Position numbers and translations under genes: made by a program. This document shows, in pieces, positions 2,763-50,852 of a DNA stretch of 64,000 bases. Source of the stretch: Escherichia phage vB_EcoM_SYGD1. The notes under the pieces were generated by a model. The model was given only the letters and a program-made list of their open reading frames with translations. It was not told the origin of the DNA and made no database searches. Location: the sequence record MW883059; one strand, written 5' to 3'. Within the stretch, counting starts at the first letter, position 1, and the number at the start of each line of letters is the position of its first letter.

Positions 2763-3767
2763 ATGTTTAAAAAGTATAGCAGTCTTGAAAATCATTACAA
2801 CTCTAAATTTATTGAAAAACTTTATAGCTTGGGATTGACTGGTGGGGAGTGGGTAGCTCGTGAAAAGATTCACGGCACAAATTTCTCATTGATTATTGAG
2901 CGTGATAAAGTAACTTGCGCTAAACGTACTGGACCGATTCTTCCTGCTGAAGATTTCTTTGGGTATGAAATTATTCTAAAGAATTACGAAGATTCTATTA
3001 AAGCAGTACAAGATATTATGGAAACCTCAGCGGTTGTATCTTATCAAGTCTTTGGCGAATTCGCTGGACCTGGCATTCAGAAGAATGTCGATTATGGCGA
3101 TAAAGATTTTTATGTATTTGACATTATTGTTACTACAGAAAGTGGTGATGTGACTTATGTCGATGATTATATGATGGAATCATTTTGTAATACATTTAAA
3201 TTTAAAATGGCTCCACTTTTAGGTCGCGGTAAATTTGAAGAGCTTATTAAATTGCCAAATGATTTAGATTCTGTCGTCCAAGATTATAATTTTACAGTAG
3301 ACCATGCTGGATTAGTTGACGCTAACAAATGTGTTTGGAAAGCTGAAGCCAAAGGCGAAGTATTTACCGCTGAAGGATATGTATTGAAACCTTGTTATCC
3401 TTCTTGGCTTCATAATGGAAATCGTGTAGCCATCAAATGCAAGAATTCCAAATTTAGTGAAAAGAAAAAGTCTGATAAGCCTATTAAAGCTAAAGTTGAA
3501 CTATCAGAAGCTGATAACAAATTGGTGGGAATTTTAGCTTGCTATGTTACACTGAACCGAGTAAATAACGTTATTTCTAAAATTGGTGAAATTGGTCCGA
3601 AGGATTTTGGAAAGGTGATGGGACTAACTGTTCAAGATATTTTGGAAGAAACTTCTCGTGAAGGTATTACTCTAACTCAAGCAGATAATCCTTCTTTGGT
3701 TAAAAAGGAATTAGTTAAAATGGTACAAGATGTACTTCGTCCGGCTTGGAATGAATTGGTAAGTTAA
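2763..3767 (+). CDS. rnlB: RNA ligase 2
   Basis: ORF track 334 aa; lysine nucleotidyltransferase motif I in EKIHGTNFS; same length and position as T4 Rnl2 (gp24.1). Confidence 0.85.

Positions 3768-37962: not shown

Positions 37963-37963
<1 letters not shown>
37238..37963 (+). CDS. 1: gp1 deoxynucleoside monophosphate kinase
   Basis: ORF track 241 aa; P-loop GVKRSGKDT; length as T4 gp1. Confidence 0.85.
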
Positions 37964-38648
<685 letters not shown>

Positions 38649-40905: not shown

Positions 40906-40978
40906 TGGGAATTAGCCAAGTTGGTAAGGCATAGCACTTTGACTGCTAGATGCAAAGGTTCGAGTCCTTTATTCCCAG
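40906..40978 (+). tRNA. tRNA-Gln (anticodon UUG)
   Basis: hand-folded cloverleaf: acceptor tgggaat/attccca, anticodon loop ctTTGac, T-arm aaagg-ttcgagt-ccttt; no encoded CCA. Confidence 0.8.
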
Positions 40979-40979
40979 C

Positions 40980-41066
40980 GCGAGAATGGTCAAATTGGTA
41001 AAGGCACAGCACTTAAAATGCTGCGGAATGATTTCCTTGTGGGTTCGAGTCCCACTTCTCGTACCA
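40980..41066 (+). tRNA. tRNA-Leu (anticodon UAA), long variable arm, CCA encoded
   Basis: acceptor gcgagaa/ttctcgt, anticodon loop ctTAAaa, T-arm gtggg-ttcgagt-cccac, 3' acca. Confidence 0.8.
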
Positions 41067-41072
41067 AAGTTT

Positions 41073-41144
<72 letters not shown>

Positions 41145-41156
41145 AAATTTAATTTA

Positions 41157-41230
41157 CTCCGTGTAGCTCAGTTTGGTAGAGCGTCTGCTTTGGGAGCAGA
41201 ATGTCACAGGTTCAAATCCTGCCGCGGAGA
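41157..41230 (+). tRNA. tRNA-Pro (anticodon UGG)
   Basis: acceptor ctccgtg/cgcggag, anticodon loop ttTGGga. Confidence 0.75.
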
Positions 41231-41232
41231 CT

Positions 41233-41319
41233 GGAGGCGTGGCAGAGTGGTTTAATGCACCGGTCTTGAAAACCGGCAGTCGCTCCGGTGACTCATAGGT
41301 TCAAATCCTATCGCCTCCG
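41233..41319 (+). tRNA. tRNA-Ser (anticodon UGA), long variable arm
   Basis: acceptor ggaggcg/cgcctcc, anticodon loop ctTGAaa, T-arm atagg-ttcaaat-cctat. Confidence 0.8.
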
Positions 41320-41326
41320 TAATTTC

Positions 41327-41399
41327 GCTGATTTAGCTCAGTAGGTAGAGCACCTCACTTGTAATGAGGATGTCGGCGGTTCGATTCCGTCAATCAGCA
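41327..41399 (+). tRNA. tRNA-Thr (anticodon UGU)
   Basis: acceptor gctgatt/aatcagc, anticodon loop ctTGTaa. Confidence 0.8.
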
Positions 41400-41405
41400 T
41401 ATCAA

Positions 41406-41477
41406 GGCCCTGTAGCTGGAAGGTTCAAGCAAGCGACTCATAATCGCCAGATGGTGGTTCAATTCCACCCAGGGCCA
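41406..41477 (+). tRNA. tRNA with CAU anticodon (T4 tRNA-Ile homolog; Met by anticodon alone)
   Basis: acceptor ggccctg/cagggcc, anticodon loop ctCATaa, T-arm ggtgg-ttcaatt-ccacc. Confidence 0.7.
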
Positions 41478-41518: not shown

Positions 41519-42184
41519 ATGTTCCATTACACTTATAAAATAACAAATAAAATTAATAATAAAATCTATATAGGCGCTCATTCTACCGAAAATTTAGATG
41601 ATGGATATATGGGTTCTGGTAAATTATTAAAAAGAGCCCAAGACAAGTATGGTATAGAAAATTTCTCTAAAGAAATATTAGAGTTCTTTGACGATAAAAC
41701 CTCTATGTTTGAGTCAGAAAAGAATATTGTGACTGAAGAGTTTTTAAAGCGCCCTGATGTTTATAATTTGAAATTAGGTGGTGAAGGTGGTTGGGACCAT
41801 TTAAACACTAAAGAATATTTGGATAAAAAGAAAGAAGCTTCCTTAAAAGGGGCTGCTGCTTTTAAAACCAGATTTGAGAACGACCCAGACCTTAAAGAAA
41901 AATATCGTAAAATGGGTTCAGAAAGGTTTAAACAGCTTTGGGATAATCCTAAGTATAGAGAGAAATTTTTAAATATTAAATCTTTATTGGGTAAGACCCA
42001 TACTCCTGAAACTATTAATAAAATGAAAGAATCTCACGCCAGAAATAAACACCAACAGGGCGAAAAGAATTCCCAATTTGGTATGATGTGGATTCATTCA
42101 TTAGATGAAAAAGTTTCTAAACGTATTAAGAAAACTGACCCAATTCCAGAAGGATGGTTTAAAGGTCGAAAAATGAAATTTTAA
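41519..42184 (+). CDS. segB: GIY-YIG homing endonuclease embedded in the tRNA cluster (SegB-like)
   Basis: ORF track 221 aa; TYKITN ... KIYIGAH GIY-YIG motifs; position between tRNA subclusters as T4 segB. Confidence 0.75.
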   Translation: MFHYTYKITNKINNKIYIGAHSTENLDDGYMGSGKLLKRAQDKYGIENFSKEILEFFDDKTSMFESEKNIVTEEFLKRPDVYNLKLGGEGGWDHLNTKEYLDKKKEASLKGAAAFKTRFENDPDLKEKYRKMGSERFKQLWDNPKYREKFLNIKSLLGKTHTPETINKMKESHARNKHQQGEKNSQFGMMWIHSLDEKVSKRIKKTDPIPEGWFKGRKMKF

Positions 42185-42187
42185 TTA

Positions 42188-42264
<77 letters not shown>

Positions 42265-46296: not shown

Positions 46297-46827
<531 letters not shown>

Positions 46828-46831
46828 AGTT

Positions 46832-46862
46832 GTTTACTTTCTCCAAGTAACTGTGATAGTAT
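46832..46862 (+). promoter_or_regulatory. T4-type early promoter cassette
   Basis: GTTTAC at 46832, -10 tgtgatagtat. Confidence 0.55.
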
Positions 46863-46887
46863 ATTCACAGTTACTTGGAGGGATAAA

Positions 46888-47304
46888 ATGACTCGTATTA
46901 ATTTGACTTTAGTATCTGAACTTGCTGATCAACATTTAATCGCAGAATACCGTGAACTGCCGCGTGTTTTTGGTATAGTTCGTAAACATGTTGCAAATGG
47001 TAAGCGGGTTAAAGATTTTAAAATATCTTCCGAGTTTATTTTAGGTTCTGGTCATGTCACGTTCTTTTACGATAAGTTAGAATTTTTGCGAAAGCGTCAA
47101 TCAGACATTATAACGGAATGCTTAAAACGCGGATTCAGTATAAAAGATACTGAAGTTCCTGACATCAGTGATATTCCAGTAGAATGGAAAAATGATTATA
47201 ATCCATGCAAATCAGCTATTAGGTTGAGTCAACAACGACTCGATGAAAAAATTTTAATGAAGCCACACTGGTACAAGTATTACGGCAAAAATATTTACAT
47301 TTAA
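46888..47304 (+). CDS. denV: endonuclease V, pyrimidine dimer DNA glycosylase
   Basis: ORF track 138 aa; [17 protein letters not shown]...WYKYYGK recognisable as T4 DenV. Confidence 0.9.
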
Positions 47305-47401
47305 ATAACATGGGAATAACCTGGACCTCATGATTCTATGAGGGATTCCCGCCAACCTGTAATAAGGTCGAGCCCAAGTGCGGTAATGGGTAAATACAGA
47401 A

Positions 47402-47989
47402 ATGGACAATTCATGCGCCACGGAATGGCCCAAATTTAGAGATAACAAAATGAGAACATTTTTAACTGGTCCTTATCTATCCCTGATGAATGCTTTTACA
47501 CACCATTCTGATGCTAGAGTAGAAGAAATTTGTAAAAACGAATATATCCTGCCATTTGAAGACTTACTTAAGCAGTATTGCACACTTCGACTAGATGGTG
47601 GACGTCAATCCGGTAAATCAATTGCAGTAACTAATTTTGCCGCTAATTGGTTGTATGACGGTGGAACAGTTATTGTTCTTTCTAATACTTCAGCTTATGC
47701 TAAAATTTCTGCAGATAACATCAAAAAGGAATTTTCGCGTTATTCTAATGATGATATACGTTTTCGTTTATTTACTGATTCTGTGCGTAGTTTTATTGGT
47801 AATAAAGGAAGCAAGTTCAGAGGTTTATCTCTTTCGCGAATTTTATATATAATTGATGAGCCTGTCAAATCTCCTGATATGGATAAGATTTATGATGCTC
47901 ATATTGACACTGTACAGTACTGCTGCAATAGTAAATGTTGCATTGGTGGTATTACTCGTCCTCAATTTTTTGTGATTGGAATGCAATGA
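47402..47989 (+). CDS. small P-loop NTPase-like protein
   Basis: ORF track 195 aa; Walker A-like GGRQSGKS and Walker B-like ILYIIDE. Confidence 0.5.
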   Translation: MDNSCATEWPKFRDNKMRTFLTGPYLSLMNAFTHHSDARVEEICKNEYILPFEDLLKQYCTLRLDGGRQSGKSIAVTNFAANWLYDGGTVIVLSNTSAYAKISADNIKKEFSRYSNDDIRFRLFTDSVRSFIGNKGSKFRGLSLSRILYIIDEPVKSPDMDKIYDAHIDTVQYCCNSKCCIGGITRPQFFVIGMQ

Positions 47990-48315
47990 TGACAGACACG
48001 CAACTTTTCGAATATCTTTATTTTTCGCCAAAAACTATTAAAAATAAATTGGTGAATCATTTTGAAATTTTGGCAAATAACAACGTCTTGAGCGAATTTT
48101 ATCCTAAGCAATACAAATTACAAAAAGGCGTATTCAAAGGATGCAGAGTTTTGTGCACTGCTCCTAATGCAAGATTAATGAATAAAATTCCATATTTTAC
48201 CATGGAATTTATTGATGGGCCTTTTAAAGGACTAATTACCCAAAGTTTAATGGCATATGATTCTGAGCCATTTTTAATTAAAGAGCAATCTTGGATAAAT
48301 TTATTTTCTAATTGA
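47986..48315 (+). CDS. hypothetical protein
   Basis: ORF track 47935; ATG at 47986 overlapping the preceding stop (ATGATGA). Confidence 0.45.
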
Positions 48316-48323
48316 GAGGTTAT

Positions 48324-48686
48324 ATGAAAGCATATCAAATTCTTGAAGGCACGCATAAAGGTACTATTTATTTTGAAGACGGTATTCAAGCACGAATTAT
48401 TGTCTCTAAAACCTTTAAAGAGGACTCTTTTGTAGACCCAGAAATTTTCTATGGTTTGCATGCCCGTGAAATTGAAATTGAAACACAACCTACAGTTAAA
48501 ATTGAAGGTGGTCAACACCTGAACGTTAACGTTCTGCGTCGTGAAACTCTGGAAGATGCAGTTAAGCATCCGGAAAAATATCCGCAGCTGACCATCCGTG
48601 TATCCGGTTATGCAGTTCGCTTTAACTCTCTGACTCCGGAACAGCAGCGCGACGTTATCGCTCGTACCTTTACCGAGAGTCTGTAA
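48324..48686 (+). CDS. autonomous glycyl radical cofactor GrcA/YfiD-like protein
   Basis: ORF track 48312; ATG at 48324 after SD gagagg; C-terminal glycyl-radical signature [25 protein letters not shown]. Confidence 0.75.
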
Positions 48687-48907
48687 TGGCAAAGATAATT
48701 ATTGAAGGTTCTAAAGATGTGCTAAATGCTTTCGCCGAGTGGTTTAGTAATTCAGGCGAACAGCAATTTAATGAAGCGTGGAACATGGGTGATATTAGTG
48801 GAATTTATCCTACGACAGAAATTTCTGTTCAGGGATATGGCATTCATGAACCTATTCGTTTAGTTGAATATGATTTATGTACTGGTGAGGAAGTAGAATA
48901 TGATTGA
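48686..48907 (+). CDS. hypothetical protein
   Basis: ORF track 73 aa; TAATG coupling. Confidence 0.45.
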   Translation: MAKIIIEGSKDVLNAFAEWFSNSGEQQFNEAWNMGDISGIYPTTEISVQGYGIHEPIRLVEYDLCTGEEVEYD

Positions 48908-49166
48908 AGATATTAAGGGTTATAAGCCGCACACTGAAGAGAAAATCGGTAAAGTGAATGCTATCAAAGACGCTGAAGTTCGTTTAGGACTTATCTTTGA
49001 TGCTTTATATGATGAATTCTGGGAAGCACTAGATAATTGTGAAGATTGTGAATTCGCGAAGAATTATGCCGAAAGCCTCGATCAGTTAACTATTGCTAAA
49101 ACGAAACTCAAAGAAGCCAGTATGTGGGCTTGTCGTGCAGTGTTCCAACCAGAGGAAAAATACTAA
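48900..49166 (+). CDS. hypothetical protein (T4 vs.4 position; candidate Acb2)
   Basis: ORF track 88 aa; fourth gene upstream of regB counting as in T4. Confidence 0.45.
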
Positions 49167-49444
49167 TGGCTCAATTAAGCGCAGGGTTTGGTTATGAGTA
49201 TTATACTGCCCCTCGTCGTGTATCTGTTGCTCCTAAGAAAATTCAAAGTCTTGATGACTTCCAGGAAGTAGTCCGTAACGCTTTCCAGGATTATGCACGT
49301 TATCTTAAAGAAGATTCGCAGGACTGTCTCGAAGAAGATGAAATTGCTTACTATACGCAGCGTCTTGAACAGCTCAAAAATCTACATGAGGTTCGTGCAG
49401 AAGTTTCAAAGTCTATGAATAAATTGATTAGATTTAAAGAATAA
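49166..49444 (+). CDS. hypothetical protein (T4 vs.3 position)
   Basis: ORF track 49124; ATG at 49166 overlapping previous stop. Confidence 0.45.
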
Positions 49445-49446
49445 CT

Positions 49447-49476
49447 GTTTACTTTTCCTCTTGACTGTGGTATAAT
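49447..49476 (+). promoter_or_regulatory. T4-type early promoter for regB
   Basis: GTTTAC at 49447, 18 bp spacer, TGgTATAAT at 49468..49476. Confidence 0.65.
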
Positions 49477-49503
49477 TTTTCTATCAGTTAAGAGGAGAAC
49501 AAC

Positions 49504-49965
49504 ATGACTATCAATACAGAAGTTTTTATCCGTCGAAATAAGCTTCGTCGTCACTTTGAGTCAGAGTTTCGTCAAATTAACAATGAGATTCGTGAGGCAT
49601 CAAAAGCAGCAGGGGTCTCATCGTTTCATCTAAAATATTCTCAGCATCTCCTTGATCGTGCAATTCAACGGGAGATTGATGAGACATATGTTTTTGAATT
49701 ATTCCACAAAATAAAAGACCATGTTTTAGAAGTTAATGAATTCCTGAGTATGCCTCCGCGTCCTGACATTGACGAGGATTTTATTGATGGGGTTGAATAC
49801 CGTCCTGGACGTTTAGAAATCACAGATGGAAATCTTTGGCTTGGATTTACAGTTTGTAAACCTAATGAGAAGTTCAAAGACCCGTCACTTCAATGTAGGA
49901 TGGCAATTATTAACAGTCGTCGTTTACCAGGAAAGGCTTCTAAAGCAGTAATTAAAACTCAATGA
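49504..49965 (+). CDS. regB: RegB endoribonuclease
   Basis: ORF track 153 aa, same length as T4 RegB; position between denV and tk. Confidence 0.75.
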   Translation: MTINTEVFIRRNKLRRHFESEFRQINNEIREASKAAGVSSFHLKYSQHLLDRAIQREIDETYVFELFHKIKDHVLEVNEFLSMPPRPDIDEDFIDGVEYRPGRLEITDGNLWLGFTVCKPNEKFKDPSLQCRMAIINSRRLPGKASKAVIKTQ

Positions 49966-49972
49966 GGTAAGC

Positions 49973-50518
49973 ATGAGAAAAGCACTACTCGCTGGTCTAT
50001 TGGCCATTTCAATGATGGCACATAGCTCCGAGCATACTTTCAGTAATGTCCAACTCGATAACATGCGTTACGCGTATCAATTCGGGGAACAATTTTCTAA
50101 GGATGGAAAATATAAAACACACAAAAATATCCATAAGAGCGGATTAGGTCATATAATGGCTGCTATTTTATGGCAAGAAAGCTCTGCCGGAGTTAATTTA
50201 AAATCTAAACCAAAGCATCATGCCTACGGAATGTTCCAAAACTATTTGCCAACTATGCGAGCAAGAGTTAAGGAACTTGGTTATAATATGACTGATGCTG
50301 AAATAAAAAGAATGTTGAATAAACGGTCCAATTCAGCTTCCTGGGCGTACATTGAACTTTCTTATTGGTTAAATATACATAAGGGCGATATAAGAAAGGC
50401 GATATCCTCTTATAATTCGGGATGGAATGTTAAAGCAGGTTCTAAATATGCTTCTGAAGTCCTAGAAAAGGCTAACTACCTTAAAAATAATAAACTTTTG
50501 GAAATAGTAAATGACTAA
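49973..50518 (+). CDS. secreted lytic transglycosylase-like protein (T4 vs.1 position)
   Basis: ORF track 181 aa; signal peptide MRKALLAGLLAISMMAHS; SLT motifs AAILWQESS and YGMFQ. Confidence 0.65.
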   Translation: MRKALLAGLLAISMMAHSSEHTFSNVQLDNMRYAYQFGEQFSKDGKYKTHKNIHKSGLGHIMAAILWQESSAGVNLKSKPKHHAYGMFQNYLPTMRARVKELGYNMTDAEIKRMLNKRSNSASWAYIELSYWLNIHKGDIRKAISSYNSGWNVKAGSKYASEVLEKANYLKNNKLLEIVND

Positions 50519-50852
50519 AATTTTGGTTTTATGTATAGGATTAATTTCATTTTCTGCGTTAGCAAATACATCATATACTGAAATTAGAGAGTATGTAAAC
50601 CGTACTGCCGCGGATTATTGCGGGAAAAATAAAGCATGCCAAGCTGAATTTGCGCAGAAATTAATATATGCATATAAAGACGGAGAAAGAGATAAATCAA
50701 GCAGATACAAGAACGATACTTTATTAAAACGATATGCTAAAAAGTGGAATACCTTAGAATGTTCAGTTGCGGAGGAGAAAGATAAAGCCGCTTGTCATTC
50801 AATGGTTGACCGTTTAGTAGATTCTTATAATCGAGGATTGAGTACTAAATGA
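50511..50852 (+). CDS. secreted Cys-containing hypothetical protein
   Basis: ORF track 113 aa; signal peptide MTKILVLCIGLISFSALA; four Cys. Confidence 0.45.
   Translation: MTKILVLCIGLISFSALANTSYTEIREYVNRTAADYCGKNKACQAEFAQKLIYAYKDGERDKSSRYKNDTLLKRYAKKWNTLECSVAEEKDKAACHSMVDRLVDSYNRGLSTK

Follow-up and report, generated by a model that had tools for sequence, protein, structure and literature searches.

Genes matching T4 acb2 (vs.4) and tadIV-1 (vs.3) lie side by side between denV and regB in a T4-like Escherichia phage

The window analysed here is a stretch of 64,000 nucleotides from Escherichia phage vB_EcoM_SYGD1 (record MW883059). It belongs to a T4-like phage (Tequatrovirus) distinct from T4: phage LH2 is the best match over 4.3 kb (97.8%), and over 25 kb the closest matches are Tequatroviruses with about 95% identity. 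Between denV and regB we found six tightly packed plus-strand genes, in the order vs.8, vs.7, vs.6, vs.5, vs.4 and vs.3. The annotated T4 record (NC_000866) contains the identical six genes in the identical order, in agreement with the initial annotation, in which six genes had been counted in this interval as in T4. The identities proposed there for denV, regB and a GrcA-like gene were also recovered by Pfam (Pyr_excise, REGB_T4 and Gly_radical, respectively). The features of the region are listed below.

46333..46827, plus strand: lysozyme gene e
46888..47304, plus strand: denV (Pfam Pyr_excise, E=2e-13)
47450..47989, plus strand: vs.8, 179 amino acids from MRTFLTG (PHROG 1488, E=2.7e-79); 47450 is the more likely start, and the mechanical ORF start is 47402
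47986..48315, plus strand: vs.7, 109 amino acids (PHROG 2049, E=2.8e-54)
48324..48686, plus strand: vs.6, GrcA-like glycyl-radical cofactor protein, 120 amino acids (Pfam Gly_radical, E=2.2e-18)
48686..48907, plus strand: vs.5, 73 amino acids (PHROG 1986, E=1e-42)
48887..48891, plus strand: Shine-Dalgarno GAGGA of acb2, located within the 3' end of vs.5 (by direct reading of the sequence)
48900..49166, plus strand: acb2 (vs.4), 88 amino acids (PDB 7UQ2, NP_049728, PF24729, PHROG 717)
49166..49444, plus strand: tadIV-1 (vs.3), 92 amino acids (T4 Vs.3, PDB 9WIW, PHROG 2037)
49448..49476, plus strand: promoter-like site of the sigma-70 type in the vs.3-regB gap (consensus match only)
49504..49965, plus strand: regB (Pfam REGB_T4, E=8e-69)
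49973..50518, plus strand: vs.1

Identity to the corresponding T4 proteins is 100% for regB, 98% for vs.6 and 78% for denV, the last of which is 100% identical to its counterpart in phage LH2. In T4, ipII and ipIII lie between e and denV; both are absent from the window at 46827..46888. The missing ipII/ipIII and the divergent denV together indicate that a mosaic exchange may have taken place beside the highly conserved vs block. A minus-strand ORF of 197 amino acids (48099..48692) runs antisense to vs.7 and vs.6, and we interpret this ORF as a shadow cast by the coding strand. The remaining ORFs listed between denV and regB are unsupported alternative-frame overlaps or antisense shadows.

Comparison of the product of ORF 48900..49166 with the crystallised T4 protein (PDB 7UQ2, 'Vs.4') revealed identity at 88/88 residues (E=1.9e-57), and all 88 residues are likewise identical to those of T4 NP_049728. 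This ORF had previously been assigned to the vs.4 slot, and hence to Acb2, simply by counting from the GrcA-like gene in the vs.6 slot. Both placements proved correct: the GrcA-like product agrees with T4 Vs.6 at 119 of 120 residues, and the alignment with T4 Vs.4/Acb2 gave 100% identity rather than an absence of similarity. The Pfam profile PF24729 (Acb2_Tad1_hairpin) was matched over its positions 1-58 of 58 (E=7.1e-20; 71.4 bits, gathering score 27). A match was also obtained to PHROG 717 (E=2.3e-32), which is the set of Vs.4 homologues named by Jenson et al. (PMC10097602). At the nucleotide level, 9 of 267 positions differ between acb2 and T4 vs.4, all of them third-position and synonymous, which indicates that the translated frame has probably been under purifying selection. 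Homologues of acb2 were detected in 1235 phage records, including 121 at 99% identity or above. We found no sequence evidence against the assignment, and ORF 48900..49166 is almost certainly the acb2 (vs.4) gene of a T4-like phage, with a product identical to the T4 protein.

T4 Vs.4 binds 3',3'-cGAMP with a Kd of about 30 nM and is a hexamer in the crystal as well as in solution (sedimentation), with three cGAMP bound in pockets that are each built from two protomers (PMC10097602). It blocks the activation of the phospholipase CapV by cGAMP, an effect that is abolished by mutations in the pocket or at the hexamer interface (PMC10097602). The six chains of 7UQ2 have the same sequence as the window protein. 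All of the cGAMP-contact residues (Y8, H11, K23, R79 and F82) and hexamer-interface residues (L29, F33, A66, A73 and A77) are kept in the window Acb2, and so are T12, L60 and S74, positions that were reported in a screen to be important in T4 Vs.4.

Because the two proteins show zero amino-acid differences, the mechanism of T4 Acb2 can probably be carried over to the window protein, whose hexamer formation, ligand binding and expression we infer from this identity. As shown for the T4 protein, six helical-hairpin monomers of 10 kDa would form an interlocked hexamer with three pockets, each made from the N-terminal parts of two protomers and each accommodating one cyclic dinucleotide (CDN). The bases of the ligand would be stacked on Y8 and F82, and hydrogen bonds and salt bridges would be provided by H11, K23 and R79. 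Since the ligand would be held by Acb2 without cleavage, CBASS effectors such as CapV should remain under their activation threshold and the phage cycle could be completed. T4 Acb2 also sequesters 2',3'-c-di-AMP, the decoy of Panoptes, and it is both necessary and sufficient for Panoptes triggering; acb2 was mutated in 14 of 15 T4 escapers, and each of the substitutions Y8A and F82C abolishes the effect (PMC12657218). The Panoptes (OptSE) defence would thus be triggered by the window protein as well, because Acb2 is expected to soak up the decoy.

Members of the Acb2 family vary in ligand spectrum (PMC10312549; PMC12393519), which leaves room for the idea that the window protein has a ligand range broader than that of T4, including, for example, cyclic trinucleotides as in PaMx33 Acb2. 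PaMx33 Acb2 (p26; PDB 8H2J/8IXZ) is a member of the same family and is likewise a hexameric CDN sponge with a hairpin domain. It could be aligned with the window Acb2 over the full length (identity about 24%, E about 0.03 by phmmer), and its Y11 and K26, which are essential for cGAMP binding (PMC10312549), correspond to Y8 and K23. A second pocket of PaMx33 Acb2 (R67/T74) binds cyclic trinucleotides, whereas T4-Acb2, which has D61, takes a range of cyclic dinucleotides but binds neither cA3 nor cAAG (PMC10312549). In the window protein, D61 occupies the position of R67, and T68 is present at that of T74; the Arg plus Thr pair of the PaMx33-type cyclic-trinucleotide pocket is lacking. Because D61 stands at the Arg position and cA3 is bound neither by T4-Acb2 nor by its D61R mutant, in which cA3 binding was not restored (PMC10312549), the window Acb2 is predicted to be of the T4 type, specific for CDNs. 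Given that the window and T4 proteins are the same residue for residue, D61 and T68 included, we consider a broader ligand range very improbable.

ORF 49166..49444 adjoins the vs.4 slot and encodes a product of similar size (92 versus 88 amino acids), and it had been offered in the initial annotation as the neighbouring alternative for Acb2. The coordinates and lengths given there are correct for both ORFs; for vs.3 we used the T4-equivalent ATG at 49166, the mechanical ORF beginning at GTG 49124. BLASTP yielded no alignment between the two products at E<=100, and searches with the PF24729 and PHROG 717 profiles gave no match for the product of 49166..49444. This product is instead identical to T4 Vs.3 (92/92 residues), and it matches PHROG 2037 (E=1.5e-40) as well as PDB 9WIW, a TadIV-1 homologue of 109 amino acids from phage UPEC07 (E=2.6e-37). 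As the ORF identical to 7UQ2 is 48900..49166, there is hardly any chance that the Acb2 orthologue is 49166..49444 and that 48900..49166 is something else. In this window, counting by gene order in the Tequatrovirus vs region picked the correct ORF.

T4 Vs.3 has been described as TadIV-1, a homodimeric sponge for N7-cADPR (Kd about 216 nM) that prevents activation of the Caspase-like effector of type IV Thoeris, and deletion of vs.3 renders T4 sensitive to this system (Chen et al., Nat Commun 2026, PMC13243611). Active homologues were found only among long forms (about 90 amino acids, with an N-terminal loop), and R17, R18 and K24 are important for ligand binding (PMC13243611). The window Vs.3 is such a long form (92 amino acids) with the N-terminal loop, and all three residues are kept. 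By this identity, ORF 49166..49444 is TadIV-1 (Vs.3), predicted to act as an N7-cADPR sponge against type IV Thoeris, and a dimer of it would trap N7-cADPR by its flexible N-terminal loop, by which the defence would be blocked.

TadIV-1 and Acb2 are unrelated: the former is a dimer rather than a hexamer, has a flexible-loop pocket and takes N7-cADPR, not CBASS signals. The span 48900..49444 is two unrelated sponge genes, acb2 and tadIV-1, and the functions of both are already known and published. The window vs.3 differs from that of T4 at 2/279 nucleotides without any amino-acid change. This, together with the synonymous 9/267 differences in acb2, argues that both are genuine genes rather than fortuitous ORFs.

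The two genes are closely linked to each other and to vs.5. The end of vs.5 and the beginning of acb2 have 8 nt in common (ATGATTGA), and the TAA stop of acb2 and the ATG of vs.3 share one base (TAATG). The GAGGA sequence, 8 nt before the acb2 ATG, is conserved in T4 and LH2; acb2 would be translated from this ribosome-binding site of its own. The TAATG junction is shared with T4, as are the flanking genes vs.5 and vs.3. In T4, however, a deletion in vs.5 leaves an annotated gap of 36 nt before vs.4, whereas in the window vs.5 is intact and overlaps the acb2 start.

Scanning of 46800..50600 for promoters and terminators yielded as many sites as expected from shuffled sequences, and the sole convincing site precedes regB. 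Within the 59-nt gap between vs.3 and regB, this site reads TTTACT, 17 nt, TG-n-TATAAT (10/12 consensus matches with an extended -10; a consensus match only), and it putatively marks the downstream boundary of a unit extending from vs.8 to vs.3. In the consensus scan, there was no strong promoter upstream of vs.8 and none convincing directly upstream of acb2. In the work of Chen et al., 'the promoter of vs.8' was used to express Vs.3 to Vs.8 (PMC13243611), and this cloning strategy suggests that transcription may be driven from upstream of vs.8. Based on the use of this promoter and on the scan result for acb2, we infer that vs.8-vs.7-vs.6-vs.5-acb2-vs.3 form a single transcription unit, with translation likely coupled at the ATGATTGA and TAATG junctions.

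The lack of a dedicated promoter just upstream of acb2 in the scan could also be read as a sign that the gene is a silent or decaying remnant, unexpressed in this phage; with an intact frame, GAGGA 8 nt upstream, overlaps with both neighbours, nine exclusively synonymous substitutions that point to purifying selection, and the same arrangement functional in T4 (PMC12657218; PMC10097602), this reading has next to no probability.

In the window, vs.5 is an intact ORF of 73 amino acids, and the same is true of phage LH2, whose homologue is 94.5% identical. The T4 reference vs.5 (2841..3058 of the fetched T4 locus) has a deletion of one nucleotide (TTTCG-CGAG versus TTTCGCCGAG). As a result, the annotated T4 product has 58 amino acids and an unrelated C-terminus, and the other frame continues at 90% identity. 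It may be that laboratory T4 carries a vs.5 frameshift or that the difference is a sequencing error. Given the frameshift in the T4 laboratory reference, native Vs.5 may perhaps never have been studied.

The vs.7 product is identical to that of T4 at 108/109 residues, and the vs.8 product shows a weak P-loop/terminase-like signal (weak matches to AAA_14 and to the terminase large subunit). A PDB search with Vs.5, Vs.7 and Vs.8 detected no solved relatives at E<=0.01, and on the functions of Vs.6 and Vs.8 the literature yielded only comparative genomics.

About 100 nt between denV and vs.8 (47311..47410) are nearly identical to T4, and the adjacent denV is about 72% identical (nucleotides). T4 annotates the equivalent of this segment as the N-terminus of a Vs.8 protein of 219 amino acids. 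In the window, the T4-type long vs.8 frame stops at TAG 47437..47439, and it ends likewise in LH2, whose annotation places the vs.8 start at the equivalent of 47450. Because the T4 frame ends at this TAG, 47311..47410 probably does not code for protein but serves as a leader or promoter region. The segment contains a hairpin, GGGAAT..CCTCATGATTCTATGAGG..ATTCCC. The window has a single copy of this motif, and of the fetched loci T4 and LH2 alone share it. The fold energy of the segment is no better than that of shuffled sequences (z=0.21). An Rfam search of the window at the gathering threshold reported eight tRNAs only and no RNA element at 47311..47410.

Because the two sponge genes share a compact unit with the uncharacterised vs.8, vs.7, vs.6 and vs.5, the denV-regB interval might be an anti-defence islet with at least one further gene that counters a bacterial immune system; we regard this as a speculative and rather unlikely extension. 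The TadIV-1 study assayed Vs.3 to Vs.8 against type IV Thoeris only (PMC13243611). Vs.5 may be the most attractive candidate for such a further counter-defence gene.

Among the loci compared from other genera, Acb2 is more widespread than Vs.3/TadIV-1. The Gaprivervirus locus has the order vs.8-vs.7-vs.5-vs.4-vs.3-regB without vs.6, and the Jiaodavirus and Slopekvirus loci contain GrcA-acb2 without vs.3. In Phapecoctaviruses, which are outside Straboviridae, acb2 (64-78% identity) sits in an unrelated gene context. The distribution of vs.3 in the compared loci fits the published finding that TadIV-1 is confined to Straboviridae of Enterobacteriaceae (PMC13243611). In two Phapecoctavirus loci (Stephanstirmvirinae; 3001..3267 and 3001..3261), acb2 is 78% identical to T4 Acb2 in one and 64% in the other, and the two phages are otherwise collinear. 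Such divergence of the Phapecoctavirus acb2 suggests that this gene may have been repeatedly replaced by horizontal transfer.

A third gene of this kind was found elsewhere in the window.

38193..38648, plus strand: acb1 (gene 57B), cyclic-oligonucleotide phosphodiesterase (PDB 7T26 'Acb1', E=4.1e-62)

Its product contains two H-x-T/S motifs (HST and HIT). The gene is directly downstream of ORF 37963..38193, which we take to be 57A according to the T4 map. T4 Acb1 (57B; 7T26) also targets CBASS; in contrast to Acb2, it is a cleaving enzyme of unrelated fold rather than a sponge, and its gene belongs to another transcription unit, at a distance of about 10 kb. The phage thus encodes both known T4 anti-CBASS proteins, Acb1 and Acb2. 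It possesses three signal-neutralising genes, two of them anti-CBASS (acb1 and acb2) and one anti-Thoeris (tadIV-1).

The result is mainly a correct annotation of the full T4 signal-neutralising set, Acb1, Acb2 and TadIV-1, and the annotation of acb2 and tadIV-1 advances no open question. It does allow predictions: the phage should resist weak or Cap2-less CBASS of the cGAMP type as well as type IV Thoeris, and it should be sensitive to Panoptes, for which Acb2 would be the trigger. Predictions of this sort help to choose or engineer phages for hosts of known defence repertoire.

The window also contains a T4-type tRNA cluster with eight tRNAs (Gln, Leu, Gly, Pro, Ser, Thr, Met and Arg) at 40906..41477 and 42188..42264. 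An ORF of 221 amino acids (41519..42184) lies between tRNA-Met and tRNA-Arg, and its N-terminus presumably resembles that of a GIY-YIG homing endonuclease such as SegB. Phage RB33 annotates a segB homing endonuclease inside the matching 25-kb region.

Finally, the molecule name of PDB 9WIW, 'Endoribonuclease', conflicts with the sponge function reported for TadIV-1 (PMC13243611), and this naming is a possible source of misannotation. In some phage records, up to three genes of this region are labelled 'endoribonuclease', and these labels may be the source of the 9WIW name.
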